Positions 7,882 to 45,438 of a stretch of DNA of 64,000 nt are shown here, one piece after another. Made by a program: the position numbers and the translations under genes. Source of the stretch: a virus. Within the stretch, counting starts at the first letter, position 1, and every line of letters begins with the position of its first letter. Under the pieces are notes generated by a model. That model worked only from the letters and a program-made list of their open reading frames with translations. It ran no database searches and was not told the origin of the DNA. The stretch spans positions 32,001 to 96,000 of IMG/VR virus record IMGVR_UViG_3300021962_000044. One strand, 5' to 3'.

Positions 7882-7893
7882 AAGGAACATAAC

Positions 7894-27313: not shown

Positions 27314-28022
27314 TGTACCGGGTATAGATTATTACGATTACCGAGATAGTGAATATTATAATAAGTTTGCTTATCGGTTAAGATTTAAAATGCCCAGTAT
27401 TAGGTATATCATCAATGAGACCAAAGTTGATGGTTTGATGAAAAGGTATAATGCTACTAGTGGTTGGCGAGTTATTAGAGAAGAAGATAGACCAATAGTT
27501 ACTGAAAATCTAGAAGCACTTAAACAGTTAATAGAGTTACGTAATAGTGTTAAAAAGAATGGTACAGCAACAGTTCGTTTAGAATGGAATCATGCATCTG
27601 TTTTTAGCAATGATTTATCTTTTTTGAAAAACATTGAAAACATCAAGCCTGAATTAGAATATGATTATACTCAGGTACAAACAAACAATTTTGTAGGTGT
27701 AAAATCATTTGTTAATGATCCTAAACATAAGTTTAGAGTATATTTGAAATCTAAGATAGTTAAGGGTGATTTAATACAACAACTTGATGATCTGTTAAAA
27801 CGCACCCCTAGCTTGTATCCATGTAATTCATTAAAAAATTGGTTACTAGGTGCATTACTTACTACAAATCAACATACTTGGAGATACCGTTTTACTAGTC
27901 CTACACATTTCATTGATTATGATGATGAAAGTACATTAAGCTATCTAGCAATAATGTATGGAGAATATCTTGGAAAACGATATAAATTAGAAAAAAGAAT
28001 AGAAAATTATGGAACCAATTAG
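27288..28022 (+). CDS. hypothetical protein
   Basis: 244-aa ORF overlapping neighbours. Confidence 0.6.
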   Translation: MALLKSVTDVPGIDYYDYRDSEYYNKFAYRLRFKMPSIRYIINETKVDGLMKRYNATSGWRVIREEDRPIVTENLEALKQLIELRNSVKKNGTATVRLEWNHASVFSNDLSFLKNIENIKPELEYDYTQVQTNNFVGVKSFVNDPKHKFRVYLKSKIVKGDLIQQLDDLLKRTPSLYPCNSLKNWLLGALLTTNQHTWRYRFTSPTHFIDYDDESTLSYLAIMYGEYLGKRYKLEKRIENYGTN

Positions 28023-28422
28023 AAAATTTATTAATTTAGTTGAATCTGCACAGAGTGTTGAACAACTAGCACATATAAGCGATAAAGCATTAGATGATGC
28101 TTATCATTATGGTCGTAGCACACCCGGAGCAAACTTTGGTTGGTTAGCTAATATTGAAAGTGCAAAAGCCGCTAAAAGATTGATTGATGCCGGTGAAACT
28201 GATATTGAAAAGATTAGTGATGCTATTCATGACGGCTGGAATATCACCGCAATGGCAGATTATAATAATAAATTACAATTAGATAGTCCTACTCCTGATG
28301 AAAAGAAGGCTAAAAGAGCTAAATTAGCACAACAATCTTATAGTCAGTTGCCGGAAGAAGAAAAAGAAAAAGATCGGGTAGTTGCTAGGGCTTTATTAAA
28401 CGCAATTACAGGTACTGCATAA
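28009..28422 (+). CDS. RyR-domain-like protein with leader MEPIRKFINLVE
   Basis: SDAIHDGW..L..SYSQLPEEEKEKDR resembles the RyR repeat (H..W..L.PY..L.E.EK..DR). Confidence 0.6.
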   Translation: MEPIRKFINLVESAQSVEQLAHISDKALDDAYHYGRSTPGANFGWLANIESAKAAKRLIDAGETDIEKISDAIHDGWNITAMADYNNKLQLDSPTPDEKKAKRAKLAQQSYSQLPEEEKEKDRVVARALLNAITGTA

Positions 28423-28458
28423 AAGTGATAAATACTCTAATAAAATGGAGTATTTACC

Positions 28459-28623
28459 ATGGCAAAGATTGTAACAGAATCAATCGTAATCACTTTTAGT
28501 AAAATAGTAAAAGACAACGATTCGGGTACTAGTATCACTAGTCCTGACATCCAAGCGGCTTTAGAGCAAGTAGCCCAAGAATTAATTGGCGATAGTGTAG
28601 TTGTTGAGGTTGTAAAAGCATAA
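28459..28623 (+). CDS. small hypothetical protein (54 aa), not in ORF track
   Basis: MAKIVTESIVITFSKIVKDNDSG..VVVEVVKA; GGAG SD, TAAATA upstream, TAATG overlap with next gene. Confidence 0.7.
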   Translation: MAKIVTESIVITFSKIVKDNDSGTSITSPDIQAALEQVAQELIGDSVVVEVVKA

Positions 28624-29009
28624 TGAGCCAAACAACTACTCTTATACTATTGCCACAAACAGCATATGTTAATCCAGGCAATGGAGCACCATACACTGTT
28701 ACTGGTAATAGCCAACCCGGCGCATCATACATTATCAGTCCTAGATCATTGCAAACAGTTAATATTAACTTGACAAATTGTACTGGTAATATTACTATTG
28801 AAGCTAGTTTAGCTACTACTCCTAGTAGTACAGATTGGTTTAAAGTATATGAATTAGAAGCTAACGCAAATGCCGCTAGTAATAGCGCACCACAAATAGC
28901 TAGCAATGCATCAGTTTACACAAATATTAATGGTAACTTTGTTTATATGAGAGCAAAGGTTGTAGATTTTCAAGGTGGATTGGTTAATTTTGTTAAGTTA
29001 AGTTATTGA
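28623..29009 (+). CDS. hypothetical beta-rich protein, possibly virion
   Basis: 128-aa ORF in a late-type operon. Confidence 0.55.
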   Translation: MSQTTTLILLPQTAYVNPGNGAPYTVTGNSQPGASYIISPRSLQTVNINLTNCTGNITIEASLATTPSSTDWFKVYELEANANAASNSAPQIASNASVYTNINGNFVYMRAKVVDFQGGLVNFVKLSY

Positions 29010-29010
29010 T

Positions 29011-30900
29011 ATGAGAAATATTGTCATTATGCCGGGAGGCTTTCATCCCTTTCATGCAGGTCATGCCGCATTATATCAAAGTGCAGTAAAAGCATTTAAT
29101 GATGCTGACGTATATGTAGCCGCAACAAATGACACAAAAACAAGACCTTTTCCTTTTTCTGTTAAAGAGAAGTTAGCAAAGCTTGCAGGTGTTGCAGATA
29201 AACACTTTGTACAAGTTAAAAGTCCCTTTCAACCAAAAGAAATAACCGATCACTATAATCCGGAAGAAGATGTATTAATCTTTGTTCGTAGTGAAAAAGA
29301 TAGAAATGAAAGTCCTAAGCCGGGTGGTACAAAGAAAGATGGTACTCCAGCATATTTTCAACCCTGGACAGGTAAGAATCTACAACCATTTGGTAAACAA
29401 GCATATATTGCTTATCTACCTACAGTAGAGTTTGGTCCAGGAATTAGTAGTGCAACAGAGATACGTAATGCATGGCCTAACTTAGATGACCGTCGTAAAA
29501 CAGCAATGGTTATGAGTTTGTACCCGGTAACTCAAAAGAATCCTAAGCTTGCCGCTAATGTTGTTAAGATGTTAGATATGGGTATGGGTAATGAGTTAGA
29601 TGAGGGTATGGGTAAAGCATTGGGTACAGCCGCGTTAGCAGGTAGCCTAGCATTAGGTGGTTTATCTAGTATGGGTAAAACAGCAGTTACTAACTGGGAT
29701 AAATTACCACAACAAATGAGTACTCAACAAGATAGTAAAGGTGGTGAAAAGATTATGTCTGTAACTGGTCCTAACAATAAAGGTGAGTATCGTGTTAGAG
29801 TTACTACAGATAATGATGTACAAGAGTTTGTTACTAAAACTCCACCAAAGGCATTAAATGAATTTGCCCCACCGAGTAGTGACCGAGGTGACGGCGGAGA
29901 TAGTAGAAGTCGTAGAATAAGAAAACTATTAGAAATTGCTATACAAGTAGCAAAAGAAAAAAATATCGATGAATTGGGTATGATTCATGGTATGAATATG
30001 ATAGCAGGTGATGAATTTTTCAATACAGCAGTTGAAGGTATACTACCAGACATAACAGATAAAGAATATATGTTTGTGCTACAGAGTGCTTATAAAACAG
30101 TAAAGCAAGGTTTGGCAGAAGCAAAGAAAAAAAGAAAAAAGAAAAGTAAAAACCGTAGTCTTGGAAGATACTTCTTCCCGGGATATAGTTACTATGGCGG
30201 CGGTGGAGAATCTGGTGAGGGTGGAGGAGATGGTGGAAGTGAAGGTATGGCGGAAGGCTTCCCTCAACCAGGACCAAGTTCAGGTGCTCCAAAACAGTTC
30301 GGTGCTGATGCCCAAATACAAACTCGCCAAATGACGGTAAAAGATATTATATCATCTATACCCGGTGTGCCTTACTATAACAATGTAGTCGATGATTGGG
30401 ACGCTAAAGATTATAGTTGGGGCGTTACTAAAAAAGTTATAGAGTATGCTACTTACTTGAAGGATCATCCAGAAAGTTTAGCAAAGTTGCCACCGGCAAT
30501 AGTATTAAACGGTAAGTTTGAAGATGGCGCCCATAGAGTATCTGCCATATGGTTGCTACAACAAAGAATGGATCCTAAAAATCCATTGTGGAAAAATGTT
30601 AAATTAAATGTTCAATTTGTTAAGCAAGGTATGACGGAAGGCGAAGAAATTACTGAAGGACCTTTTGTTCAACGTCTTGGACGTCCTAATAAAGTTAATA
30701 TCTATGTGAGACATACTACAGGCAAACCCTCTTTGCTTATTGCAACTGATATTCCTTATTCAATATATGATAAGTTTATTGCAAAGGCTATGCAAAAATA
30801 TCCACAATTTAGGCAAACAGACTTTTCATTTAAATCTGCTGATAAACTTAAGGAAGAAACTAAATTGTCCGAAAGTGCTGATTACTTAGACGAAAATTAA
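29011..30900 (+). CDS. mosaic protein: HxGH nucleotidyltransferase-like N-terminus, small modules, ParB/Srx-like domain
   Basis: IMPGGFHPFHAGH and ISSATEIR; later PPAIVLNGKFEDGAHRVSA; junctions LDE, LNE, QGLAE, EGMAE, QGMTE, ITE. Confidence 0.65.
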   Translation: MRNIVIMPGGFHPFHAGHAALYQSAVKAFNDADVYVAATNDTKTRPFPFSVKEKLAKLAGVADKHFVQVKSPFQPKEITDHYNPEEDVLIFVRSEKDRNESPKPGGTKKDGTPAYFQPWTGKNLQPFGKQAYIAYLPTVEFGPGISSATEIRNAWPNLDDRRKTAMVMSLYPVTQKNPKLAANVVKMLDMGMGNELDEGMGKALGTAALAGSLALGGLSSMGKTAVTNWDKLPQQMSTQQDSKGGEKIMSVTGPNNKGEYRVRVTTDNDVQEFVTKTPPKALNEFAPPSSDRGDGGDSRSRRIRKLLEIAIQVAKEKNIDELGMIHGMNMIAGDEFFNTAVEGILPDITDKEYMFVLQSAYKTVKQGLAEAKKKRKKKSKNRSLGRYFFPGYSYYGGGGESGEGGGDGGSEGMAEGFPQPGPSSGAPKQFGADAQIQTRQMTVKDIISSIPGVPYYNNVVDDWDAKDYSWGVTKKVIEYATYLKDHPESLAKLPPAIVLNGKFEDGAHRVSAIWLLQQRMDPKNPLWKNVKLNVQFVKQGMTEGEEITEGPFVQRLGRPNKVNIYVRHTTGKPSLLIATDIPYSIYDKFIAKAMQKYPQFRQTDFSFKSADKLKEETKLSESADYLDEN

Positions 30901-30957
30901 AAATATTTTGACCCCCTTGTTTTGATGTAAATATTACTATCTTAACAAGAGGATCAA

Positions 30958-31947
30958 ATGGCAACTAAGAAAACAATCGAAAAGGTTACTGCTAAACCAG
31001 CAAAAGCCGCAACTAAAACTCCAGCAAAAGCACCGGTTAAAGCACCCGCTAAAGCTTCTAAAACAGCTAAAACAGTTCCTGTAGAAAAACTACAAGAAAT
31101 TGCTGATCAGGCTGCTAAAGAACCAGCTCAGGCAGCGGGCCCGGGTCAAGTTCAAGTTAACGTAGATTTTCTACGTACAACTAAAGTACATATTGCTATG
31201 CCATGTTATGGTGGTATGCTAACAGAATCAACATTCATGTCATTCATCAAGTGGGCAAATACAGCTCGTCAACTTGGTATTGATTGGACATTAGAAACAA
31301 TGGTTAATGAATCACTCATTAGCCGAGCAAGAAATACATTAACTGCTAAGTTTTTGGATATGCCAGACGCAACACATTTATTCTTTGTTGATGCTGACAT
31401 TGGTTGGGAGCCATGGCATCTACTAGTTCTACTGAACCGTGACGTTGATGTTATCGGTGGACTATATCCAATGAAGACAATGCCAATTAAATGGGTTGTT
31501 AATGGATTTGAAGGTGCTGAAGAAGGTACTGATGGATTACAAGAAGTATCTAAAGCAGGTACAGGTTTCTTGTTGATGAAGAAACATGTGTTTGAAAAGA
31601 TGAAGACTCATCCTGCAGTTAAACAGTATAAGAACGACATTGGATTAGATCCAAAGTTTGACCAGCACTTAAAAACGTATTTTGATACAGCGGTTCGTCA
31701 GAATCGTTACTATAGTGAAGATTGGACATTCTGTGAAAACTGGCGTGATATGGGCGGCCGCATCTGGGTTGACAAACGTGTATTGTTACGTCACTCAGGT
31801 AGTTATGTATTCTGTATGGAAAATCAGGAACATTTGATGAAAACGATCGGCCCTATGTATGTTGAAGAACAGGCTAAAAAGGCACAACCGGCAGCTCCGG
31901 CAGTTCTCCCGGATGCAACTGGTGTAGTATCAATAGCTACAACTTAA
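30958..31947 (+). CDS. GT-A fold glycosyltransferase-like protein with K/A/P-rich N-terminal extension
   Basis: IAMPCYGG, ESLISRARN, LFFVDADI (DxD), GTGFLL, SEDWTFC, L.HSG. Confidence 0.75.
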   Translation: MATKKTIEKVTAKPAKAATKTPAKAPVKAPAKASKTAKTVPVEKLQEIADQAAKEPAQAAGPGQVQVNVDFLRTTKVHIAMPCYGGMLTESTFMSFIKWANTARQLGIDWTLETMVNESLISRARNTLTAKFLDMPDATHLFFVDADIGWEPWHLLVLLNRDVDVIGGLYPMKTMPIKWVVNGFEGAEEGTDGLQEVSKAGTGFLLMKKHVFEKMKTHPAVKQYKNDIGLDPKFDQHLKTYFDTAVRQNRYYSEDWTFCENWRDMGGRIWVDKRVLLRHSGSYVFCMENQEHLMKTIGPMYVEEQAKKAQPAAPAVLPDATGVVSIATT

Positions 31948-31950
31948 TAC

Positions 31951-31971
31951 AAAGCCCCGAAAGGGGCTTTT
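31951..31971 (+). terminator. intrinsic terminator
   Basis: AAAGCCCC-GAAA-GGGGCTTTT. Confidence 0.85.
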
Positions 31972-31992
31972 ATCTTTTTAGATAAATACTCT

Positions 31993-33687
31993 ATGGACTT
32001 AAAAGAATTACATTCATTCAAAATGTCAGATGCTGTGACATTTCACGATAGCCTCAATCCTAAACTGTTTCGTGGACAACATCTACAACCTGAAGTAGAA
32101 TTACAATTAAAAACCATAGCACAAGACTTTTTACAAGAGATAGGTATACACGACTTAGATGTACGTGATATCACTATTTCTGGAAGTAATGCCGCCTATA
32201 GTTACACAGACCATAGTGATTTAGATTTACATATTTTAGTCAATATGAAGGATTTACCGGATGATGACATTTACCATGAATTCTTCAAAGCTAAAAAAGA
32301 TTTATACAATGACTCACATGATATTACTATCAACGGGATTCCAGTAGAATTATACATACAAGATGCGGCAGAACCTGTAACTAGTTTAGGTGAATATAGT
32401 GTTAAAGATAATAAATGGTTGCGAATGCCCGCAAAGCGTAGAGCAAACTTTGACCAAACAGCTACTAAGTCAAAATATATAAAACTATTAGATATTATTG
32501 ATACAACATTACAATCTGATAAAATAAGTAAAGTTAATAAAGTATTGAAAAAGATTAAACAATATCGTCAAGCTGGATTAGATAAAGGTGGTGAGTTTAG
32601 CCCTGAAAATCTAGCATATAAAGCATTACGTAGCCGTGGTTACATTACAAAGTTATATGACTTAAGAGACAGATTACATAGTAAGCATTTGAGTTTAAAT
32701 AACATGTATGCTAATGTAGATGAAGATTATGATCCAAATGGTATTCCTCCTGGACCAGAATTTAAGCCAACCATGCCAGCCGGTACTGTTAAAGTAGATG
32801 TAAGTGATACATATGATTGGTATAAGTTGGGACAACATATCAGTAATCTTGATGGATTGGGTAAACATGACTTTGGGCAAGGTCCTCCAAGTACTATAAT
32901 GGCATTTGGTAGTGAAGAGGCAGAACATAAGTATATTGATGCACTAAAGAAAACTGGTCTTACCACAACTGATATTGATCCGTTAGATCCTAATCAACCT
33001 AAAGGTATGAAGCGTCAAAAGACTGACCCTACATATAATGTAAATGAAGCTGTTACTGATAATTATCTATATCACGCTACTATGCCTGCAGGCATGATGC
33101 GTATATTGCGTACAGGTATAATTAAAGCAACTGATAGACCGCAACCATCTACTAAATCAAAAACACAATACCCTACAATTAGTACAACTAGATCAAAACA
33201 ATATGCAGAATCAAACGATTTTGTAGATTTCTTAAACTTAACCAACGACGGTAATGCAGTCATATTAGTATTTGATCGTGCCGCAGTCGCTAATCATTAC
33301 AAAATGTTTAGTACAAGTCAAGGTACACAGACAGTAGGTGACGAATATGAAGAAGTAATTGTTGCCCCCAAAGGAGCAATGCCGATCAAAGGAACCTTAA
33401 AGGGCTTCTATTTCAACCCTAGAAGCACAGAAGAAATAGAAGGATATAAAGATATACCTTGGTTCAACGAGTTATTGACCAGTCCATATTATATAGGACC
33501 AAAACAAGGTGTGGCGGAAGCATCAGGTTATATCCCTAGTGAAAAACAGAAGAATGACCCAAGATTTAGTACAGCATTAACAGTAGATATTAAGCCCGAC
33601 AGTATCAAAAAGAACGCAAAAGCATTCTATTGGAATACTAGTAGAGCAGGTATTCCTCCAACAGCAAAGCCATCAGGCAAAATCTAA
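31993..33687 (+). CDS. mosaic protein: Pol-beta-superfamily nucleotidyltransferase plus ADP-ribosyltransferase-like module
   Basis: ISGSNAAYSYTDHSDLDLHI (GS..DxD) and VELY; later YLYHAT..ISTTRS..LVFDR..EYEEVI between VNE and QGVAE. Confidence 0.65.
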   Translation: MDLKELHSFKMSDAVTFHDSLNPKLFRGQHLQPEVELQLKTIAQDFLQEIGIHDLDVRDITISGSNAAYSYTDHSDLDLHILVNMKDLPDDDIYHEFFKAKKDLYNDSHDITINGIPVELYIQDAAEPVTSLGEYSVKDNKWLRMPAKRRANFDQTATKSKYIKLLDIIDTTLQSDKISKVNKVLKKIKQYRQAGLDKGGEFSPENLAYKALRSRGYITKLYDLRDRLHSKHLSLNNMYANVDEDYDPNGIPPGPEFKPTMPAGTVKVDVSDTYDWYKLGQHISNLDGLGKHDFGQGPPSTIMAFGSEEAEHKYIDALKKTGLTTTDIDPLDPNQPKGMKRQKTDPTYNVNEAVTDNYLYHATMPAGMMRILRTGIIKATDRPQPSTKSKTQYPTISTTRSKQYAESNDFVDFLNLTNDGNAVILVFDRAAVANHYKMFSTSQGTQTVGDEYEEVIVAPKGAMPIKGTLKGFYFNPRSTEEIEGYKDIPWFNELLTSPYYIGPKQGVAEASGYIPSEKQKNDPRFSTALTVDIKPDSIKKNAKAFYWNTSRAGIPPTAKPSGKI

Positions 33688-33742
33688 TAAGTTTCCATAT
33701 TATGGTATTTTGATAAATACACTATTAGTATGGAAATCCGTT

Positions 33743-35026
33743 ATGAAAATCAAACAAATCACTGAAACTACAACAGCAGGTGCAATAGCTACTGTAAATT
33801 CACCATTAGGTGGCACACAAAGTAGAGGAAATCCTAGCATATATGGTGGCAAGAAAGTAGGAACTCTATTCAAGGGTAAAAAGACTAAAGCCCCATATGC
33901 TAATAGCATCAATGAAAGTGCTGAACTTAGTGAAGCACATTTAGAAGAAGATGATGTTATTGTTGTTCCAGGACAGGGTCGTAGTCGTAAAAACGGATTT
34001 GTTCCACATGGCCAAAGTCGTGTAGACCACGAAGTTGAAATGGCACGTAGTGATTTATTCAGTGCCGCAAAGAATGCTCAACAAGTCTTTTCAATGATTA
34101 AAGATGTTAGTGAAGATGAAGGTCTTGACGGTTGGGTACAAGAAAAGATTATTAAAGCCAATGATTATCTAAACACTATACGTGAATACCTAGAAGGTAA
34201 GCAAGTTCAAGGTGTAACGGAAAACAATCAAAGAGTTGATTCACTTGTCACAGACTCATTAAAAATAATGCGTGGTCCAGAAGTAAATGATGCAGTCAAA
34301 GCAATAAAGACTGTGCTAGGAGAAAGAGAATACAATAGCCGTCGCGGTTATTATAGTTTCTATGTTCGACAACTAATGGATATGCATGGTCAAGAAGGTT
34401 TAACGGAAGGCTTACACCCAATGATTATTGATGATGTTAAAAAATTAGCAACGTTGAGTCCTACTGACAGATATAGTGCTTATTCTAATATTCGTGGTTA
34501 CTTCAAGGCCGACCCAGCGTTGAGCAAGATGGCGTCAGATTTAATGGGAGGATACTACGAAGCAGACATGCTTAGAGGCAAGTATAAAACAGCCGAAGCA
34601 AAAGCCAAGTATGCTGAATTAGAACCAATGCATCAGGCATTTATTAAACAATCACTAGGTCAAGAGCAAGGTGTAACGGAAGGCTCCAGAAACGCATATT
34701 TGAAGCACAACAATTTAATTGATTTAGAAAAACCACTTGCCGGATTAAAGGACGAGTTTAATAAGTTTTTGCGAACCCACGATCCTGAAGAAAAACAAAA
34801 ATTCCAACAAGGTATCAAACAAAGAATAAAGACACGCCCAATGGCGGGACCTAAAGGCGTATTACCAGAGCAAGGTATATCAGAAGGCGCTAAAGTTGAC
34901 CGTATGGTTAAGCACATTGAAAAGTCAGAAGAAAAATCTGGCAAGAGTAAAAAAGAAGCTGAAAACATTGCTTGGGCAACTGCTAACAAACGTGGCATGT
35001 TAAATAACAAGAATAAGAAAGCGTAA
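33743..35026 (+). CDS. mosaic putative head-packaged protein (leader MKIKQITE)
   Basis: In-frame ATG 33743 downstream of TAAATA 33714-33719; four (Q/E)G(V/L/I)(T/S)E junctions. Confidence 0.65.
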   Translation: MKIKQITETTTAGAIATVNSPLGGTQSRGNPSIYGGKKVGTLFKGKKTKAPYANSINESAELSEAHLEEDDVIVVPGQGRSRKNGFVPHGQSRVDHEVEMARSDLFSAAKNAQQVFSMIKDVSEDEGLDGWVQEKIIKANDYLNTIREYLEGKQVQGVTENNQRVDSLVTDSLKIMRGPEVNDAVKAIKTVLGEREYNSRRGYYSFYVRQLMDMHGQEGLTEGLHPMIIDDVKKLATLSPTDRYSAYSNIRGYFKADPALSKMASDLMGGYYEADMLRGKYKTAEAKAKYAELEPMHQAFIKQSLGQEQGVTEGSRNAYLKHNNLIDLEKPLAGLKDEFNKFLRTHDPEEKQKFQQGIKQRIKTRPMAGPKGVLPEQGISEGAKVDRMVKHIEKSEEKSGKSKKEAENIAWATANKRGMLNNKNKKA

Positions 35027-35027
35027 T

Positions 35028-38000
35028 ATGAGCAATATTCTTAAAGGTATAATAAACGAAGTTAGTCCACATAACTATGATAGTGATTGGGATTATCAAG
35101 ATGCAGTAGCACGTAGTGGTAAATCACGTTCTAGCTATCGTTCACAAGAAGATGATACTTTTGACTCTGATGTTGCATATTCCAGAAAGATGTATCAATT
35201 GGGACAACAACAAAAGGCTGCAAAAGAAAAAGCACAACGTGATAGTGACCATGATAGATTGGCAAGTGGTACAAATGAAGATATAACTGAAGCCTCTAAT
35301 CCTTATGAACCAGTAATGATTCAAGGTTATGATAAGTGGCTTAAGTTAGTTAGTATTCCTAATGTTGATAGACATGCTTATAAAAGTGATATAACAGCAG
35401 TTACTTCCTTAGGTGATGTGATTGGTGAATTTAATACAGATAAAGATTTAGGATACGTTATTAAAAAATATGCTAAAGGTGTTAGTGAGAGTTTAGATGA
35501 TCCATGGGGAGATCAAGGTAACTTTGCAGGTGATAAGCCAGTTAATCTTGGTGGTGTCTCTATTAAGAATATACAAGTGGGTGATACTGTTAAGTATTTT
35601 GGACAACCTTCAAAAGTAGTTGCTATGAGTAAGGATCGTAAATATTCTCGCATCACAATTTCTAAAGGCATGGGTACTGTTACACAAGATGTATTAACAC
35701 GTGACTTACAACAATTAGGCCAGGGCAAAGCAATAGAAGAAAATGATAATATTCAAACTAGAATGCGAATGGATGATTATTATAAATTGGCAGATGCTAT
35801 TCAGGAAAAACTTAGACAAGCAATTAAACTAGGTGATAACGAACTTGTACATAAATTATCCAAAGAACGTGCTGACTTAGATGCACGTGTTAAAAAATAT
35901 GGATTGATACCAGAATCACAACTAGATGAAATCTCTAATGAAAAGTTAGCACAATACAAAACAGCTGCCGCATTAGATGCAGGCAAAGCTGATAAAGAAG
36001 GTGATTATAAACGTGGCGATAAACGTTTCAGTGGTATTGTTAAAGCAACTAAGAAACAGTTTGCTAATGATACAAAGAAATCTGGTATCAGTCAAGGTAT
36101 AAATGAATTTGCCCCCATTAAACCCCCTACTGCCGGGGCATTTGGTGGTAATAAAGATTACGGACAACCAAATAGTTCACGCTATATAGGTGGTAACAAG
36201 TTTGTAGTAGGTACTACTAACAATTATGTATTGACCGCTACAATAGACAAATGGGGATTAGAATGGGATGAGGATGACGAGATATGGTTCTTAGACAGTC
36301 CCGGTGCCGCACATATTGCTGATGCTAGTGAAGGTGAAATAGAACTACCTCCACCCCGTGAACAAAGAAATCAAATACATGATTTAGTAACTGATTATCT
36401 TAATGAAAGAAATTCTGCTGATTTACAAAAGGTAGCCGCATATTATGGTCACAGTAATGATGGCGAAATGGCAACAAATGAAAGTTCAGAAGCACCTAGA
36501 TTTAACAGTAAACAAGAAGTTATTAATCACTTTGTTAAAAACGGCAAAAGTGCGGCAGCAGGTGCAGCGGCATGGGAACGTGGTTATAGAGGTTCATCTA
36601 AGAAACCAATAGAGTTAAAAAAACCACCACAAAGAAGTTACCATGATGAACTAGATGATAAACGTTATTCAAATACATTTGAAAACTTAGGTGATCAATT
36701 GAAATCTAATTCATTAAACGCACTAGTTCAAGCCAAATTAGCTATAGAGCAACAACGTCAAGCTGAAATAGAAGCTTGGAAAAGAGATTTTGAAAAGAAT
36801 ACAGTACAAAAAGCACAACAAGGTTTACGTAGAGAATTTGAACCAACTCCAGTTGCACAGCCTGGCGAGAAGCATTCTGTATTGAAAGCTAGGTTAGCAC
36901 AATTAAATAATGCTATACAGAAGCAAGAACTAGTAGATAAGTTAGTTGATAGATTAGAGCGTAAGGGTTTAATGACTCCTGCAATGCAAAACGATACTGA
37001 TACAAGAATGCATGTTAAGTATGGTGCAAAAGATAACTATCAATCTTTAAATAAAAAATTAGACAATGCTATTCAAATGTTACAGAATAGATTAAATATC
37101 CGTAAAATTTCTGGATTAAAAGAAGGTCATGATGAGCGTGATGAATATGATAATCCTAGAATGGGTAGAGATTACGGCAAAGGCAATCTATTTGTAGATC
37201 CTGGTTCAAATGAATTTAAAAAAGAAGTACATATAGGTAGCAATGACGGCGAACGTGGCAGACCAAAAAATCTAAAGGGTGTTTCAAAAGTATTACCAGC
37301 TGATGCATTTGGCCGTACTACAGGTAAGATACCAGATAGTGCAAGACCAACATCAAAAGAAGATCCTTTTAAAGACGTTGATGAAGACCTAGACGAAAAT
37401 CTACATAAGTGGTTTCAAGAAAAGTGGGTACGATTTGGACCTGATGGTAAGATCCGTGGTGATTGCGCTAGAGGTGATGATAGTGAAGGTAAACCAAAAT
37501 GCTTACCACAAAGTAAAGCACAGAATTTAGGCAAAGCAGGTCGTGCTAGTGCGGCAAGTCGTAAGCGTAGAGAAGATCCTAATCCAGAACGCAGTGGTAA
37601 GGCTATCAATGTTGCTACTAAGAAAAAGAGTAACGAAGGTGTGGCGGAAGACCAACTTGATGAATTAAGTTGCTGGTCTGGTTATCATAGAGTCGCTGGC
37701 ACCAAAGCAGGCTTTCCAGGTAGTTGTGCTAAAAATAAAACAAACGAAGAAGCAGTTGATGAAGCTGATATGAACCGTAGAGGATTCTTAAAAGGTATGG
37801 GTGCGGCGGCTGTGGCAGGTAGCGCATTAGTTAATCCTATTGTTGCTAAAGCGCAAGATTCAACATCTGCTAGAGGAATAACAAAATCTGATTTACAAAA
37901 AAAATTCCCTAATAGTTTAGATATTAAAGCGACAGGAACAAGACCACCCTCTATTATAACGGATTTAGGTTTATCATCCGGTAAAAATTTAGAATTGGAA

Positions 38001-39365
38001 GTAAAGACTACCGATTTATTGGGTAATGCATCGTTAGGATATATTGAATTTATAAATGATATAATGGTTGGTCAATTTTATATCACTGATAAATCAAACT
38101 TACCAAAAATTTCAGCGTTTACTAAAAAGCCAGAAATTATTGAGTATTTTAAAAATATAGCCACACGAATATTAGGCACGGGTAAATTAGGTTCTGTTCA
38201 AGGAAAAATCTCACTAGACAAAGTAAATACGGATCAGGGAGTGGGAGCCGGAGTGATGAAAGGACTCTTTGAAATTAGTTATGATACAATTAATATTAAT
38301 GTAGAAACATCAAATGGATCAATTAACCTATTAGTCGGTGCCTATGAAAGTGGAAACTACTTTGTTATAAGTTTAATAACTGCAATAAAAAAACAACAAA
38401 ATAATTTAACACTTGACGAATTCAACAAAAAAGTTGTGGCGGAAGAACAACATAGTTGCCCACATTGCGGTGGCGAGATGGTTAGTGAAGAACTAATGAA
38501 TGAAAAGAAAGATGCTTGCTACTATAAAGTAAAGAGTCGTTATAAAGTATGGCCAAGTGCTTATGCATCTGGTGCGTTAGTTAAGTGTCGTAAGAGTGGT
38601 GCTGATAGTTGGGGAAACAGCGGTAAGAAAAACGAAAGCATTGAAGAAGGCTGGCAAGATGAAGCACAAGAGTTAGAGGACTGGTCAAAAGAAGTCAATA
38701 AGAAATTGTATAGAGCGCATGAAACTCAGCGTCCTGGACTAGCAAGACAACTAAGCAAACTAGAACAAAAACATTTTGGTAGTAGTCTAAATCAAGGATC
38801 ACTTACAGAAATAGTTAAGGCAGCATTGATGGCATTACAAAAAGGTCAAATGGTTCACTATGATCCACAACAAGTAGGTCAAATGCCATTTGGTAACATA
38901 GTAGGCGATGAAGCTAAACTTATTGCAAAATATAATATAACCCGTGACGAACTTGCTGGTTACCGTATGTTACACGATAAAAATATGGTAGATAATCTTG
39001 AACAATTTTTAAAGTTACGCCGTTTGGTACGTGCAAAGTCATGGCCTCTAGAGTATTATGAAGAACTAGAGAAGTTAACACCGGAAGAAGCATGGTTAAA
39101 AATGGCCGATGATTTGAATTGGTCCAAAGATGACATGAATGAAGAAATTCAATCTAAAACAGATGATAAGTTATTAGCATACTACGCACAGCGTAAGGCT
39201 GAAAAACAAAAACAACAAAGTCAACCACAAGACCAACTTGATGAAAAGTGGACTAAGAAATACAAAGATAGCATCAACTGTAGTAATCCAAAAGGATTTA
39301 GTCAAAAAGCACATTGTGCCGGTAAACAGAAAAATGAAAGTGCTATTATGAAAGGTCTTAAATAA
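35028..39365 (+). CDS. 1445-aa mosaic putative polyprotein with an internal Tat-signal module
   Basis: Leader MSNILKGIINE; more than 15 short modules bounded by xxE motifs; MNRRGFLKG..AKA at 37770-37853; small Cys-containing basic modules. Confidence 0.7.
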   Translation: MSNILKGIINEVSPHNYDSDWDYQDAVARSGKSRSSYRSQEDDTFDSDVAYSRKMYQLGQQQKAAKEKAQRDSDHDRLASGTNEDITEASNPYEPVMIQGYDKWLKLVSIPNVDRHAYKSDITAVTSLGDVIGEFNTDKDLGYVIKKYAKGVSESLDDPWGDQGNFAGDKPVNLGGVSIKNIQVGDTVKYFGQPSKVVAMSKDRKYSRITISKGMGTVTQDVLTRDLQQLGQGKAIEENDNIQTRMRMDDYYKLADAIQEKLRQAIKLGDNELVHKLSKERADLDARVKKYGLIPESQLDEISNEKLAQYKTAAALDAGKADKEGDYKRGDKRFSGIVKATKKQFANDTKKSGISQGINEFAPIKPPTAGAFGGNKDYGQPNSSRYIGGNKFVVGTTNNYVLTATIDKWGLEWDEDDEIWFLDSPGAAHIADASEGEIELPPPREQRNQIHDLVTDYLNERNSADLQKVAAYYGHSNDGEMATNESSEAPRFNSKQEVINHFVKNGKSAAAGAAAWERGYRGSSKKPIELKKPPQRSYHDELDDKRYSNTFENLGDQLKSNSLNALVQAKLAIEQQRQAEIEAWKRDFEKNTVQKAQQGLRREFEPTPVAQPGEKHSVLKARLAQLNNAIQKQELVDKLVDRLERKGLMTPAMQNDTDTRMHVKYGAKDNYQSLNKKLDNAIQMLQNRLNIRKISGLKEGHDERDEYDNPRMGRDYGKGNLFVDPGSNEFKKEVHIGSNDGERGRPKNLKGVSKVLPADAFGRTTGKIPDSARPTSKEDPFKDVDEDLDENLHKWFQEKWVRFGPDGKIRGDCARGDDSEGKPKCLPQSKAQNLGKAGRASAASRKRREDPNPERSGKAINVATKKKSNEGVAEDQLDELSCWSGYHRVAGTKAGFPGSCAKNKTNEEAVDEADMNRRGFLKGMGAAAVAGSALVNPIVAKAQDSTSARGITKSDLQKKFPNSLDIKATGTRPPSIITDLGLSSGKNLELEVKTTDLLGNASLGYIEFINDIMVGQFYITDKSNLPKISAFTKKPEIIEYFKNIATRILGTGKLGSVQGKISLDKVNTDQGVGAGVMKGLFEISYDTININVETSNGSINLLVGAYESGNYFVISLITAIKKQQNNLTLDEFNKKVVAEEQHSCPHCGGEMVSEELMNEKKDACYYKVKSRYKVWPSAYASGALVKCRKSGADSWGNSGKKNESIEEGWQDEAQELEDWSKEVNKKLYRAHETQRPGLARQLSKLEQKHFGSSLNQGSLTEIVKAALMALQKGQMVHYDPQQVGQMPFGNIVGDEAKLIAKYNITRDELAGYRMLHDKNMVDNLEQFLKLRRLVRAKSWPLEYYEELEKLTPEEAWLKMADDLNWSKDDMNEEIQSKTDDKLLAYYAQRKAEKQKQQSQPQDQLDEKWTKKYKDSINCSNPKGFSQKAHCAGKQKNESAIMKGLK

Positions 39366-39411
39366 TGAAAGACTATGATTTTTATTGGAATTTAAAAGGA
39401 TACCCTAGAGG

Positions 39412-40011
39412 CTAATCAAAAATTATTCTCCAACCCTTATAAGAGGTCTCGTTTTTTCGGATGAGACCTCTTAATCCTTTAGTACTAATAGAGTATTTTA
39501 TAGCAAATTCATATGAGGTACTGTATACTCTTTCTAGAGTATTGATGTTCTCAAAGCAATAGACTGTTTTATTAAATCTAGTATTATTAGTTCCGGCTTT
39601 GGATCGTTTTGTGAATTTTGAAGCATATTCATTTGATATTAATCTGCCGCGCACCCAACCTTCTGGAATATCTCCACGAATTTTCTTATTAATAATACCA
39701 TTGTTAATCCAAATAGTGCCATACATTGGATTATTCTCACCGGTATTCGATAATTTTGCGAGATAAGATTTTTCTTCAGGAGAGACTTTCATTCTCTGAG
39801 ACATGATTAAACATGCTTTGTAATCCCCTTGTGATTTATGTATTTCGTAATGTTCTTTGATGGAAACACATAGTAAATTTGATATTTCATTATTATTGTG
39901 ATTTCCATCAATATGATGAATTTCATAACTGCGACCATCTTCATCTTTAGGAATGGGCCCTATAAATGTTTCGTAAATCTTACGATGATCCGTGGTTGAA
40001 TAAATACTCAT
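39412..40011 (-). CDS. free-standing HNH homing endonuclease; probable start ATG 40011
   Basis: YEIHHIDGNHNNNEISNL.C.S..EH; GENNPMYG and WINNG..GWVRGR DNA-binding motifs; opposite strand to neighbours; SD AAGGAG. Confidence 0.88.
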   Translation of the reverse strand: MSIYSTTDHRKIYETFIGPIPKDEDGRSYEIHHIDGNHNNNEISNLLCVSIKEHYEIHKSQGDYKACLIMSQRMKVSPEEKSYLAKLSNTGENNPMYGTIWINNGIINKKIRGDIPEGWVRGRLISNEYASKFTKRSKAGTNNTRFNKTVYCFENINTLERVYSTSYEFAIKYSISTKGLRGLIRKNETSYKGWRIIFD

Positions 40012-40111
40012 GCTGGTGCTCCTTTTTAGCATTAGAGTAGTTGGGCCTGCCAGCCGCGAACTACACTTTTATTTATCATAAGTTTAGATAAATATATGAA
40101 TAAGGATTAAT

Positions 40112-40552
40112 ATGTTAGTAGAAAACTTAAAAGTGTTATTGGCTAGTACTCAAGTGTTTGCGATTAAAACGCAACAATTCCATTGGTGCGTAGAGGGGAC
40201 CAACTTCCCGCAATATCACGAATTCTTTAATACGTTATATGGAGATGTGAGTGCTACTATTGATCCTATTGCTGAATATATTAGAATACTAGGTCATTAC
40301 ACTCCGGGTAGTTTAACACGTTATGCAGAACTAAGTATCATTCAAGACCAAATTAAAATTCCACGTGCTGAGTTAATGTTTGCAGAATCATTGCAAGATT
40401 GTGAAGCAATGGGTCAACTTGTTGTTGCTATGTTTGATCAGGCAGCTAGTGAGAATCAGCATGGTATCGAAAACTATATGGCTGAACTACAAGATTTGTA
40501 TGGCAAGAAAGCATGGTTTATCCGTTCAACATTAAAAAGAGAACGTGAGTGA
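40112..40552 (+). CDS. dps: Dps/ferritin-like protein
   Basis: K...FHWCVEG.NF..YHEFF..LY..IDPIAEYIR.LG; C-terminal K.AWF. Confidence 0.88.
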   Translation: MLVENLKVLLASTQVFAIKTQQFHWCVEGTNFPQYHEFFNTLYGDVSATIDPIAEYIRILGHYTPGSLTRYAELSIIQDQIKIPRAELMFAESLQDCEAMGQLVVAMFDQAASENQHGIENYMAELQDLYGKKAWFIRSTLKRERE

Positions 40553-41046
40553 GAGCAATTGATTTTTTAATTGAAGTAGGTGACAGTCCATACAAGTTAC
40601 CTAACCGTTGGAAAAACAACGGAGATTCTGTTAAGAAGTCAATAGAATTACCTAGTGGTAATTATTTAGAAATTGATATAACGGCTGATACTAAATTAGC
40701 TTTAGTAAATTTTTATGTAGGTGGAAGTCAAAAAATTACAGGTGAGGGTGATGCTATTAAAATCTTTTCAACTGTAGGTAATGCCATAAATGATTATGCT
40801 ATAAAGAAAAGACCATATGTAATTTGTTTTACTGGTCACATATTTGATAATAGTAGAATACGTTTATATGATAGATTAGCAAACAGATGGTTAACTATGC
40901 CCGGGCTTAAGGGATATGTTAATTTAACAGACCATGAAGATTTATGGCCAACAGATTTAGTATATTTTATGGATGATATACAAGATTTAACCGATCAAAA
41001 AATTTATGTTTTAGCAAGCCCAACTTGGATGAGAAACGTAACATGA
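40549..41046 (+). CDS. hypothetical protein (leader MRAIDFLIE), paralogue of next gene
   Basis: EVGDSPY, ITGEGDAIKIFSTV, SRIRLY shared with ORF 41043. Confidence 0.65.
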   Translation: MRAIDFLIEVGDSPYKLPNRWKNNGDSVKKSIELPSGNYLEIDITADTKLALVNFYVGGSQKITGEGDAIKIFSTVGNAINDYAIKKRPYVICFTGHIFDNSRIRLYDRLANRWLTMPGLKGYVNLTDHEDLWPTDLVYFMDDIQDLTDQKIYVLASPTWMRNVT

Positions 41047-41846
41047 GAGCAACAGAATTTATTTTAAATGAGGTCGGGGACAATCCTTATACGTTTGAGC
41101 CATATCAACCACCCAATCAGCAACATATTAAAGTTCGTGCCCGTAATGCAATAGATAAAATACCTCCTAATAAAAATACAATTACAACTAATGTATCTAA
41201 TCCAAATATAAAAAATTATTCCTTCGTTACTAAAAACGGACTTAGATATGTTGTAATATTAAAACCTTCTACTCCAAAAGCTAACGGAGAGATTAACACA
41301 GTAGAACTAGCATTTTATGCTATTGATAAAAGAGGTAGACCAAATTTTGACCTCACTGGTACAGGTGATGCGGCAAATGTTTTTGCTACAGTAAAAAATG
41401 TATTAGCAAAATATATTGAAGAATATAATCCAAAACTTATTGGTTTTTCAAGTGAGAAAAAAATAGATACTACCCCAAACAACGATAGTAGATTTAAACT
41501 ATATTCATTATTTGCTAAACAGTTTAGTAAATGGTTTCCTGCTTATGCAAAATCATACACACGTGATGAAGCAGACAGAACTGTGTTTATGTTTAAGCGT
41601 AATGCTGATGAACAAGTTACTGAACAAACAAACCCTAAAATAGATTTGACACCAAACTATCCTAACTATAAAGTATTAGTGGGAGAGTTTATTGGCATTA
41701 GAAAAAACAGAGCAAGATTTTTAATTGTAGCATCTGAACTTAAACCAGGCGTACGTGAGACTGATAATATATTTAGAGCAAAAACAACTAATACACCAAT
41801 CAGTATTGAAATTAGTAAAGTAAAGAATCGAACAGTAGTAGGATAA
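41043..41846 (+). CDS. hypothetical protein (leader MRATEFILNE) with extra C-terminal module after VTE
   Basis: EVGDNPY, LTGTGDAANVFATV, SRFKLY; ATGA overlap supports start 41043. Confidence 0.65.
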   Translation: MRATEFILNEVGDNPYTFEPYQPPNQQHIKVRARNAIDKIPPNKNTITTNVSNPNIKNYSFVTKNGLRYVVILKPSTPKANGEINTVELAFYAIDKRGRPNFDLTGTGDAANVFATVKNVLAKYIEEYNPKLIGFSSEKKIDTTPNNDSRFKLYSLFAKQFSKWFPAYAKSYTRDEADRTVFMFKRNADEQVTEQTNPKIDLTPNYPNYKVLVGEFIGIRKNRARFLIVASELKPGVRETDNIFRAKTTNTPISIEISKVKNRTVVG

Positions 41847-41848
41847 AA

Positions 41849-42286
41849 ATGAAAAAAATATTAATATTAATAATGCTAACATTAACAACTATAGCATTTG
41901 CACAAAAACAAAAGCCAATGAATATATATGAATTTCCAATCACTAGAGTTATTGATGGAGATACTGTAGCATTTCAAGCACCGTTCTTACCCCCACCATT
42001 AAAACAAGAGTTAAGTATTCGTGTATTTGGTGTTGATACACCTGAAAAAGGTCATAGAGCAATGTGTCCAAGTGAAGACCAACGTGGTCAAGCCGCTACT
42101 GCATTTACAAAAAATGCTATCAGTAAAGCACAGAAACGTCAAGTAGCTATTGCTGATTGGGATAAGTATGGTGGACGTGTATTGGGTGATATAATACTTG
42201 ATGGACAAAGTTTAAGAATGATGTTAATACAGAATGGATTTGCAAGAGAATACTACGGAGAAGCTAAAACTTCTTGGTGCAACTAA
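41849..42286 (+). CDS. thermonuclease (SNase-like) with Sec signal peptide
   Basis: MKKILILIMLTLTTIAFA signal; RVIDGDT, IRVFGVDTPE, DKYGGRVLG, LIQNGFA. Confidence 0.9.
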   Translation: MKKILILIMLTLTTIAFAQKQKPMNIYEFPITRVIDGDTVAFQAPFLPPPLKQELSIRVFGVDTPEKGHRAMCPSEDQRGQAATAFTKNAISKAQKRQVAIADWDKYGGRVLGDIILDGQSLRMMLIQNGFAREYYGEAKTSWCN

Positions 42287-42287
42287 C

Positions 42288-42359
42288 ACACCTTAGGACC
42301 GGTACTTGTTACCGTGGTGTAGGCGGCTTCTGCCTTAAGCAATCCAATTCGCTACTGGA
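42288..42359 (+). ncRNA. candidate structured RNA element (multi-hairpin, GC-rich intergenic)
   Basis: ACACC/GGTGT enclosing CGGTA/TACCG; AGGCGG/CTGCCT; TCCA/TGGA; family not recognised. Confidence 0.35.
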
Positions 42360-42385
42360 CCTTATAAGTGAGCATAAATACTAAT

Positions 42386-43525
42386 ATGAGAGCAATAGAA
42401 CTATACGAATCAGCCGCAAGTGAACTAGCTAAGAAACTTCCTAGCTTAGAGAAGCACGACTATAATACCATTGATAAACTAATGAGAAATATAGCAAAGA
42501 AACATCGTATAACCGGTGATGCATTGCATGATTTATTTGTTAGAAAATATCACAAAACTCCAGACAGTTGGATTAAAGATAAACTAGATGAGGTTGGAGG
42601 ACGACATTACAACCCGGATGGTTCAACATATCGCGGATCCAATAATAAAATGCCGACATTAAATGATCCGGAAGATATTTATAACAGGGCAGAACGAGTA
42701 CCATATCAAGATCCAGCCGGTGAGGATCCTGAAATAGATGATAGTGTTAAACAAATTATTAAAAATGGATTAGACAGGTTAAGTGATGATGAACGAAAAG
42801 TATTAATTTTAAGATTTTGGCATGATTTGACATTACGACAAATTGCTGATAAGTTTGGACTATCTGAACCTAGAATAAGACAAATTGAAGCTAAGGGTTT
42901 AAGAAGATTACAAGTTTCTGCTAAACATAAAGGATATGATCCAGAAGCATTAAAACTGTATGTAAAACAAAACGAAAATCCACCAAAACTAATGGCTCAA
43001 GATAAAACCAAAGCACAAGCGTTAAAAGTAGCAAATGCGTATAAGACAGCGTTCCCAAAGAAGCCTTACTACCCGCCTAAAGCAAAGAAAGATATAGATA
43101 CGGGTGAAGTATGGGTTTACTACCCGCCTAAAGCAAAGAAAGATGTCATTAAAGAATCTGAACAAGAAGATTTAAATAATAATCCTATTGTACAGAAGTT
43201 TCTTGCTTGGACAAGTAAGAAGTTAAACTTAGAAACTACACCAAAGATAGAGTTTAGTTATGATAGTGATGAAGCACAAGAAGGTCATCATACTGGAAGA
43301 CATAATCCAGATACGGGTGAAGTATGGGTTTATTGTGCCAATAGAAATTTAGTAGATATATTACGTACTGTGTTCCATGAATTAACTCATGTACGTCAGG
43401 GTGAATTAAATATGATTAAGCCGGGTGATAGTTATCCAGGTAGTCCAATAGAAGCAGAAGCGGATGTAATGGCTGGCAAGTATATTAAGATATTTGGCAA
43501 AATGCATCCAGAAATATTTCAATAA
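42386..43525 (+). CDS. mosaic protein (leader MRAIELYE): sigma70 region-4 HTH module plus HExxH metallopeptidase-like module
   Basis: LSDDERKVLILRF..LTLRQIA.KFGLS..RIRQIEAKGLRRL; LRTVFHELTHVRQ..EAEAD; TAAATA 5 nt before ATG 42386. Confidence 0.7.
   Translation: MRAIELYESAASELAKKLPSLEKHDYNTIDKLMRNIAKKHRITGDALHDLFVRKYHKTPDSWIKDKLDEVGGRHYNPDGSTYRGSNNKMPTLNDPEDIYNRAERVPYQDPAGEDPEIDDSVKQIIKNGLDRLSDDERKVLILRFWHDLTLRQIADKFGLSEPRIRQIEAKGLRRLQVSAKHKGYDPEALKLYVKQNENPPKLMAQDKTKAQALKVANAYKTAFPKKPYYPPKAKKDIDTGEVWVYYPPKAKKDVIKESEQEDLNNNPIVQKFLAWTSKKLNLETTPKIEFSYDSDEAQEGHHTGRHNPDTGEVWVYCANRNLVDILRTVFHELTHVRQGELNMIKPGDSYPGSPIEAEADVMAGKYIKIFGKMHPEIFQ
43066..43144 (+). repeat. 28-bp exact direct repeat (43066-43093, 43117-43144)
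   Basis: TTACTACCCGCCTAAAGCAAAGAAAGAT twice; the intervening DNA matches 43309-43332. Confidence 0.9.
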
Positions 43526-45171: not shown

Positions 45172-45438
45172 ATGTCGGATTATAACAGAACGTTTAATGG
45201 TGAGGCAAAAATTAAGCTTACCCAAATCGTAAATGAAGGGATGCATGTACTACATGAAATTGATACATTGAATGGTGGATTAAATGACACTATTAAAGCG
45301 GTGGCTGATGAGCTGGAAATTAAAGCTAGTACATTAAAGAAAGCAATTAAAATTGCACACAAGGCATCATTAGGTCAGACTAACAAGGATCACGATGAAC
45401 TCAATACAATCCTAGAAACTGTGGGAAAAACGCTTTGA
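45172..45438 (+). CDS. small helical protein, possibly T4 DsbA/GapR-like dsDNA-binding protein
   Basis: 88 aa, EI..L...L.D..K.V..EL.I....LKK.IK pattern; SD AAGGAG. Confidence 0.5.
   Translation: MSDYNRTFNGEAKIKLTQIVNEGMHVLHEIDTLNGGLNDTIKAVADELEIKASTLKKAIKIAHKASLGQTNKDHDELNTILETVGKTL

Follow-up and report, generated by a model that had tools for sequence, protein, structure and literature searches.

A 64,000-nucleotide stretch of viral DNA (here called the window), comprising bases 32001-96000 of the 111-kb IMG/VR contig IMGVR_UViG_3300021962_000044 (CheckV completeness, 32%), encodes a set of proteins that begin with short leaders resembling the capsid-targeting propeptides of phage T4. Several of these proteins are polyproteins, strings of modules joined at the same kind of hydrophobic-x-Glu motif that ends the leaders. 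The family B DNA polymerase encoded here shares 43-48% identity with the enzymes of Sinorhizobium phage Phosso, Agrobacterium phage Atu_ph07, Vibrio phage 2.275.O, Xanthomonas phage XaC1, and Klebsiella phage RaK2. On this basis we place the window in the Rak2/Atu_ph07 branch of the T4 superfamily, as part of an aquatic jumbo myophage that has not been cultured.

The best available interpretation, to which we give a little better than an even chance, is that these proteins would be packaged, cut in the prohead, and injected; cleavage at the joints, taken alone, has somewhat better odds than the full chain. Modular effector polyproteins and single-module proteins would be made late in infection, most of the precursors with a short propeptide of the T4 capsid-targeting type (MRAxEF[IL]xE, MSxILKGxxxE, or MK..ITE). 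The leader would carry the precursor into the prohead core, where a prohead protease of the T4 gp21 type (Peptidase_S77) would cut after each boundary Glu. The freed modules would remain inside the head until they pass, together with the DNA, into the next host. In three precursors, a twin-arginine translocation (Tat) signal would become N terminal only after the cut, and the modules behind it could then be re-exported to the periplasm.

The members of the set are listed below by position in the window; a slash marks the end of a leader, aa stands for amino acids, and GATAAATA is a promoter-like box described further on.

7252-10593, plus strand: two leader genes in the tail/structural block, encoding 209 aa (MKSLKTYITE/S, from 7252) and 899 aa (MDFKSLLSQLDQLNE/A, from 7894); GATAAATA at 7224-7231
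23041-23598, plus strand: 185-aa protein, leader MTNKTILNE/G; phrog_13138 (E 1.9e-18), annotated as a virion structural protein
28009-28422, plus strand: single-module 137-aa protein, leader MEPIRKFINLVE/S; weak Pfam RyR match (E 5.7e-4, below cut-off)
29011-30900, plus strand: 629-aa polyprotein without a leader
31993-33687, plus strand: 564-aa polyprotein, start MDLKE/L; phrog_36119; GATAAATA at 31981-31988
33743-35026, plus strand: 427-aa polyprotein, leader MKIKQITE/T; GATAAATA at 33712-33719
35028-39365, plus strand: 1445-aa polyprotein, leader MSNILKGIINE/V, at least 13 modules
37764-37862, plus strand: internal Tat-type signal ADMNRRGFLKGMGAAAVAGSALVNPIVAKAQ of the 1445-aa polyprotein, directly after VDE912 (Pfam TAT_signal 18.1 bits; cut-off 22.7)
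40549-41046, plus strand: 165-aa protein, leader MRAIDFLIE/V, GTG start; weak DUF6934 match; paralogue of the 41043 protein
41043-41846, plus strand: 267-aa protein, leader MRATEFILNE/V
42386-43525, plus strand: 379-aa protein, leader MRAIELYE/S; GCATAAATA just upstream
60600-62126, minus strand: 508-aa protein, leader MRASEFLSE/A, followed by an ADP-ribosyltransferase (ART)-like module, LAE292, a Tat signal, and a Peptidase_M48 module
62126-64000, minus strand: 629-aa protein, leader MNFTELFE/G, start at 64015, just outside the window
64012-65073, minus strand, beyond the window edge: first gene of the minus-strand operon, 353 aa, leader MRFTEIISE/N; GATAAATA upstream

Leaders resemble T4 capsid-targeting propeptides

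A previous reading of the window from its letters alone (the sequence-only reading) had listed eleven leaders ending in hydrophobic-x-Glu and had likened them to those of T4. All eleven were found at the positions it gave: 7252, 7894, 23041, 28009, 33743, 35028, 40549, 41043, and 42386 on the plus strand, and, on the minus strand, 62126 and the open reading frame (ORF) that starts just past the window edge. An N-terminal propeptide of about 6 to 20 residues ending in [LI]-x-E is present on ten window ORFs and missing from the 29011 protein. The leader MKIKQITE starts at an ATG (33743) inside an ORF that had been called from a TTG (33710), and this start is supported by the GATAAATA box at 33712-33719. 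The likeness to T4 proved real and close when we compared the leaders with T4's own proteins (NC_000866). Internal proteins (IPs) II and III start MKTYQEFIAE/A, IPI starts MKTFKEF...ITE/A, Alt starts MELITE/LFDE, and gp24 starts MAKINELLRE/S; the cut site of gp23 is FLTE65/A.

How specific such leaders are depends on how they are defined. A loose rule that asks only for hydrophobic-x-E among residues 1 to 16 performed weakly, with matches in 33 of 145 ORFs versus 19.8 ± 3.9 after shuffling; ClpA also matches. The strict T4-like pattern, ^M.{3,4}[DE][FILVM].{1,3}E, is specific: it matched six of the 145 ORFs (MRAIDFLIE, MRATEFILNE, MRAIELYE, MRASEFLSE, MNFTELFE, and MRFTEIISE) versus 1.3 by shuffling. 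The leader-bearing proteins have no mutual BLAST similarity apart from the paralogous pair 40549/41043.

We then compared the window with 80 related IMG/VR loci. The leader occurs there on 139 nonredundant ORFs, whose first modules are of at least 50 unrelated kinds, and a back-translated leader pattern found at least 120 further IMG/VR stretches, often with two or three leaders in tandem. In 188 copies of a stricter form, MRAx[DE]F[IL]xE, synonymous positions vary freely, and thus it is the peptide, not the DNA, that is conserved. From these comparisons we conclude that the leader is portable and that selection acts on it as a peptide.

Hydrophobic-x-Glu motifs coincide with module boundaries

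A typical joint within the polyproteins reads [QEK]-G-[VLIM]-x-E with G, A, or S as the next residue; the others read [LIV]-[DN]-E. For the pattern G[LIVM].E[GASN], the polyproteins have 14 matches versus 1.8 ± 1.3 after shuffling, and the remaining proteome (29,653 residues) has 4 versus 5.8. To set module boundaries independently of the motif, we took the ends of BLAST matches between five window polyproteins and the ORFs of the 80 related loci. Of the 30 clusters of homology breakpoints obtained, 21 lay within 4 residues of [LIVM]xE, compared with 14.5% of random positions, and the observed mean distance from breakpoint to motif was reached in none of 20,000 resamplings. The claim that domain boundaries coincide with hydrophobic-x-E motifs is thus upheld, with enrichment of the motif confined to the polyprotein set. 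Relatives carry differing subsets and orders of the modules.

The 29011 protein begins with a cytidylyltransferase-like module (aa 1-198; Pfam CTP_transf_like, 26.6 bits, above cut-off). It has joints at LDE198, LNE284, LAE370, MAE415, MTE543, and ITE549 and breakpoint clusters at 195, 281, 373, and 541. A ParB/Srx module at aa 416-543 of this protein, for which a DGAHR motif was the sole basis and Pfam gave no match, is not claimed. The 31993 protein, whose start MDLKE/L resembles the MELITE/L of T4 Alt, consists of a nucleotidyltransferase (NTase; aa 1-244) ending at VDE244, a linker module ending at VNE352, an ART-like module (aa 353-509) ending at QGVAE509, and a tail. Breakpoint clusters of the 1445-aa protein fall at 86, 297, 360, 700, 785, 870, 910, 1138, and 1400, each adjoining [LIV]xE, and several of its modules are free-standing or otherwise combined in cyanomyophages. 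In the 42386 protein (clusters at 69 and 251), the leader is followed by a module ending at LDE69, a sigma-70 region 4 (Pfam Sigma70_r4, E 3e-17) ending at IKE257, and an HExxH zincin. This zincin looks IrrE/M78-like, with an Atlas lead to Peptidase_M78 (score, 0.96); a sequence search matched it to no solved structure.

On the minus strand, the 60600 protein matches Pfam Peptidase_M48 at 32.3 bits; it showed no BLAST similarity to T4 Alt and no tblastn match in cultured phages. The 62126 protein runs from its leader and first module through GVNE108, a Tat signal with a beta-rich module, and QGVNE276 to a GP88-family module (E 2.4e-27). Across the set, we identified ART-like domains, two nucleotidyltransferases, an M48 peptidase, a zincin coupled to a sigma region 4, and, in common with cyanophages, small basic modules containing cysteine.

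Relatives of the 427-aa protein (33743) differ in their module subsets. Its joints are INE58 and four of the G[VLI]xE type, with Glu at 160, 222, 313, and 381. An AlphaFold model made from a 58-row alignment predicts helical modules with no fixed mutual arrangement (predicted template modeling score, 0.26). The first 90 residues are disordered in the model, and its sole internal breaks of low predicted local distance difference test score (pLDDT), at 156-162, 219-225, 304-311, and 366-379, coincide with or adjoin the four G[VLI]xE joints.

The same modules follow leaders and internal joints

Residues 353-509 of the 31993 protein were modeled as an ADP-ribosyltransferase fold (pLDDT, 82.8). The top Foldseek matches of the model are all KptA/Tpt1, cholera toxin A, DarT, or PARP (E from 1.6e-3), and an Atlas lead agrees. 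The module always starts with AVGxxYLYH, whether after the internal VNE/ of the 31993 protein, after the leader MRASEFLSE/ of the 60600 protein, or after LDE/ in relatives. In other metagenomes, it also forms free-standing proteins of 160 to 176 aa with only MRASEFIVE/ (P0006), MRVYELFE/ (P0007), or MLISELIQE/ in front of it. Likewise, the RyR-like module stands free behind the leader MEPIRKFINLVE/ at 28009 and is internal, after GMAE/G, GVAE/G, or LEE/G, in relatives. We conclude from these module starts that a leader end and an internal joint are equivalent, which we regard as the most telling result of the comparison.

Internal Tat-type signals follow the same rule. All seven that we found, three on the contig and four in relatives, start 1 to 3 residues after xE and precede differing downstream modules. 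On the contig, they lie in the 62126 protein (Pfam TAT_signal, 23.5 bits, above the cut-off), in the 60600 protein (aa 294-313, 22.0 bits), and in the 1445-aa protein. An internal Tat signal is sensible only if the precursor is cut there; all three contig signals are internal and would become N terminal only upon such a cut.

A promoter-like box is shared with virion genes

The box GATAAATA occurs 12 times in the window (positions 381, 4056, 7224, 10661, 22360, 22417, 28427, 31981, 33712, 40070 on the minus strand, 40087, and 54287), always between genes and co-oriented with the next gene. It precedes the sheath, tube, fiber-like, and virion-protein genes, as well as the leader gene at 7252 and the polyprotein genes at 31993 and 33743; a related box lies upstream of 42386 and of the minus-strand operon 64012-62126-60600. 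In a complete relative (G001), the box lies upstream of 50 of 388 ORFs, including sheath, tube, fiber, and polyprotein genes. The window is depleted of the T4 late promoter TATAAATA, with 4 copies versus 12.3 expected; by analogy with T4, it is probably GATAAATA that serves this lineage as late promoter. Taken together, the comparative data support cleavable joints and late coexpression of these genes with virion genes. Homing endonuclease genes of the HNH and GIY-YIG types, at 39412-40032 (minus strand) in the window and in G001, also stand behind a GATAAATA-type box and may borrow a late promoter.

A T4-type prohead protease is encoded in relatives

T4 gp21 has an established preference for cutting behind Glu where P3 is hydrophobic. 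Since this specificity fits the joints and since the leaders are T4-like, a prohead protease is the favored candidate for the cutting enzyme. The search that the sequence-only reading had proposed for such a protease succeeded in the relatives and failed on the contig itself. Each of the 10 long related contigs carried a Peptidase_S77 gene of the T4 gp21 type (E 1e-25 to 1e-29): one apiece in the five found via the polyprotein (E ~1e-28), and likewise in the five found only through the leader DNA pattern. In G001, the protease gene (L092:9532-10185) lies in the order portal, core protein, protease, scaffold, capsid protein. In the scaffold, [LIVM]xE sites number 29 versus 13.8 ± 2.9 after shuffling (T4 gp22 has 16 in 269 residues), and the capsid protein aligns with T4 gp23 (E 4e-43), with ILE34 and LAE43/S where gp23 is cut.

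The joints might instead be cut in the cytoplasm of the infected cell by another phage or host enzyme, such as the embedded IrrE-like zincin or M48 peptidase, with the products acting unpackaged in the same infection. Embedded peptidases were proposed as releasing enzymes by Iyer et al. in 2017 (PMC5512222), and two such modules are present here, one matching Pfam Peptidase_M48 and one with the HExxH motif and the M78 lead. The lack of a leader on the 29011 polyprotein would also fit, and Tat export is simplest from the cell that produces the protein. Cutting after Glu with a hydrophobic P3 is, however, the specificity of T4 gp21 and not that of M48 or M78 enzymes. The embedded peptidase modules occur in only two precursors and are missing from the others, the leaders match T4 capsid-targeting propeptides, and the genes share their box with those for sheath and tube. 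A homologue of one module was, moreover, detected in purified virions of cyanophage S-CREM2 (see below). We consider cytoplasmic cutting unlikely, if the most serious rival to cleavage in the prohead.

One joint is conserved at the nucleotide level

The sequence-only reading missed the nucleotide-level conservation of the commonest joint. At QG[VLM][AT]EG joints (30106-38447 and related loci), the rare codons CAA GGT NTN GCG/ACG GAA GGC are used almost always, and the 18-mer is kept even where the flanking modules of relatives share no more than 50-60% identity. We counted codons at 93 sites in 238 nonredundant homologues: where P2 is Thr, the codon is ACG in 4 of 5 cases (background, 4%), and the P1′ Gly is GGC in 64% (background, 21%). 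Neither QLDE joints nor leaders share this bias. It is not accounted for by cleavage and suggests a further role in the recombination of cassettes. The QGVAEG joint may double as a site of in-frame recombination whose uniformity is maintained by the very exchanges it promotes, and this role can coexist with cleavage. We rejected the possibility that Shine-Dalgarno-like bases of the joint (AAGGTG and GGAAGG) drive internal initiation, since there is no start codon at a consistent distance.

Recombination could also be the main function of the joints. They would then be in-frame recombination joints and flexible linkers, with the 18-nucleotide CAA GGT GTN GCG GAA GGC letting homologous recombination swap cassettes while the frame is kept; the proteins would act uncut, as multidomain polyvalent proteins, and the leader would be an N-terminal helix with some other role. 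The rare codons fixed across the homologues, together with the extensive shuffling of cassettes exactly at the joints in relatives, are what this explanation predicts. It does not account for the leaders and QLDE-type joints, where free variation at synonymous sites points to selection on the peptide, or for the invariant Glu and the always hydrophobic P3, which persist even where a joint is without the DNA motif. In a protein left uncut, internal Tat signals would serve no purpose, and modules also stand free behind a leader. Recombination at the joints is compatible with cleavage but fits poorly as the sole explanation, and in that form it seems to us improbable, slightly more so than cytoplasmic cutting.

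Comparison with known systems

The proteins of the window share with T4 IPI-III and Alt a short propeptide that ends in hydrophobic-x-Glu and one conserved leader in front of unrelated cargo; both systems include cargo with an ADP-ribosyltransferase fold and, in the lineage, a protease of the gp21 family. The T4 cargo consists of single proteins cut once near the N terminus, whereas here an ORF has up to 13 or more modules with a site at each boundary. The leader family described here, known from sequence alone, heads at least 50 module families and has no sequence homology to the T4 IPs or Alt.

One line of experimental evidence comes from another phage, the T4-like cyanophage S-CREM2. The first module of the 31993 protein (aa 18-235) is 36% identical to its ORF156, which was detected by mass spectrometry in CsCl-purified virions (6 unique peptides) together with ORF155 and ORF154 (PMC10665884, Table 3). 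These three ORFs are adjacent, and the authors suggested that their products are encapsidated (PMC10665884). The cytidylyltransferase encoded by ORF154 starts MKNFSSFLTE/A. S-CREM2 ORF154-156 thus have, as here, a homologous NTase module and leader-like N termini (FLTE/A); they differ in being single-module proteins of a 175-kb cyanophage, whereas the modules of the window are strung together.

Polyvalent phage proteins, like those of the window, combine unrelated effector-type domains, among them ART, nucleotidyltransferase, zincin, and possibly ParB domains, in one polypeptide encoded near late genes. They were predicted to travel with the DNA and have already been likened to viral polyproteins, with release by embedded peptidases (PMC5512222). 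Polyproteins of the window likewise join two or more unrelated effector-type domains (CTP_transf_like, Sigma70_r4, Peptidase_M48, GP88, the ART fold, and the phrog_36119 NTase). The 2017 study described neither a common leader nor a repeated consensus site, whereas the sites in the window fit a prohead protease acting in trans.

In phiKZ-like giant phages (phiKZ, 201phi2-1, and SPN3US), many head-internal proteins are cut after Glu by a prohead protease, some of them repeatedly, and are then ejected into the host (PMC5694885, PMC10052503). That lineage is unrelated, and its substrates are not modular effector strings: its protease is of the S80 family, P3 is small (S/A/G-x-E), and the propeptides mostly have 100 to 250 residues. 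In our relatives, the protease is S77, and at the sites described here P3 is L, I, V, or M. We found no description in the open literature of this leader family or of repeated prohead-protease sites at the module boundaries of polyvalent proteins. The system would operate in the manner of the T4 IP/Alt pathway, while its proteins have the look of polyvalent proteins.

Assessment of the interpretation

Several observations weigh against packaging followed by prohead cleavage. The contig is a fragment (111 kb, 32% complete) on which the prohead protease, portal, and major capsid genes were not found. The strict leader pattern had no match in the cultured phages Rak2, Atu_ph07, XaC1, and Vibrio phage 2.275.O. 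In this contig and in 23 relatives alike, no leader stands on the 29011 polyprotein, and that of the 31993 protein has just 5 residues (MDLKE). Two of the three contig Tat matches fall under the Pfam cut-off. Hydrophobic-x-E is common in helical proteins, and [LIVM].E occurs 467 times versus 401 ± 17 after shuffling in the rest of the proteome. The counts are inflated because the metagenomic contigs are related to one another, and the late-promoter reading of GATAAATA leans on analogy with T4 TATAAATA. At the QGVAEG-class joint, the Ala at P2 is encoded by GCG in 72 of 88 cases (82%; background, 7%).

That the patterns are chance, a product of picking matches from Glu-rich helical proteins in which hydrophobic-x-E is frequent, would agree with the mild enrichment of the loose leader rule, its match to ClpA, and the slight excess of [LIVM].E everywhere, yet it is very improbable, since the strict leader, the G[LIVM].E[GASN] counts, the breakpoint test, the identical module starts, and the placement of the Tat signals are far beyond chance and the same patterns are replicated in independent contigs.

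We also propose, more tentatively than packaging, prohead cleavage, and injection as such, that a single trans-acting prohead protease, reading hydrophobic-x-Glu as a repeated code, dismantles packed effector strings, that its cuts unmask the Tat signals and so route some injected modules to the new host's periplasm, and that CAAGGTGTNGCGGAAGGC (QGVAEG) is at once a protease site and a recombination joint. This combination is possible, and we hold it to be clearly less probable than not.

If the pathway of packaging, prohead cleavage, and injection operates as proposed, the T4 capsid-targeting/gp21 system would be a general delivery platform and not an oddity of three small internal proteins, and environmental jumbo phages would have expanded it into cleavable strings of enzymes for host takeover and counterdefense. 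A simple sequence rule could then predict injected proteins in metagenomic phages, and the natural leaders and linkers could be used to pack foreign proteins into capsids. The Tat signals would be a concrete case of proteolysis unmasking export signals after injection. How the payload might diversify, through reshuffling within a phage population, also gains a testable mechanism, since one joint is conserved in its nucleotides.

The payload is smaller than had been estimated. The figure of about 15 kb held in part: the motif-bearing ORFs of 28009-43525 add up to 4013 aa, or ~12 kb, and not to the full 15.5 kb, since five genes of the interval have neither leader nor joints. The minus-strand operon adds 1490 aa of motif-bearing ORFs. 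Only eight ORFs of the complete relative G001, 125 to 457 aa long, carry leaders, and payload size therefore varies and is not a fixed trait of the lineage.

Other genes and minor observations

The five genes of 28009-43525 without leader or joints, and three further landmarks of the window, are as follows.

442-5927: tail sheath and tube
25037-27313: ClpA-like full-length AAA+ unfoldase, directly 5′ of the polyprotein cluster
28623-29009: gene without leader or joints
30958-31947: 329-aa protein without leader or joints; K/A/P-rich N-terminal 60 residues (histone H1-like), then the conserved phage domain phrog_1574
39412-40032, minus strand: HNH endonuclease without leader or joints
40112-40552: ferritin/Dps-like gene without leader or joints (Pfam E 1.8e-15)
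41849-42286: staphylococcal-nuclease homologue with a Sec-type signal peptide, without leader or joints
45435-48152: polB

The ferritin/Dps-like and staphylococcal-nuclease genes are interleaved with leader-bearing genes. Chaperones of the ClpA-like kind have been speculated to translocate proteins in virion assembly (Iyer et al. 2021, PMC7824862). The ClpA-like protein of the window was considered as a possible unfoldase for the cargo. A megablast comparison of the interval 28009-43525 with cultured phages gave no match. G001 has one ORF of 5996 aa (C1:57050-75040, minus strand).

Strings of the same small basic cysteine modules occur in the cyanomyophages S-8S29, P-SSM2 (PSSM2_123, between gp15 and gp16), and BUCT-ZZ01. 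They lie at L004:346-2115, L005:1135-1950, and L006:499-2337, with DACYKKVKSRY.., KCWxGY.., and DUF6321 modules and linkers of the NES/[LI]xE type.

The charged 899-aa protein contains 26 [LIVM]xE sites and terminates in ..KKLAGLK. A C-terminal tail of this form, K-x-[LM]-[AK]-G-L(K), is shared by that ORF (10560-10593), the 23041 protein (..KSMAGL, 23570-23598), and the 1445-aa polyprotein (..AIMKGLK, 39340-39365). The gp22-like scaffold of G001 carries it as well (..KRLAGL, L092:10188-11288), and only three ORFs of G001 have the tail. Such a tail could serve as another tag for the inside of the capsid. The C terminus of T4 gp68 reads ..KALGLS.

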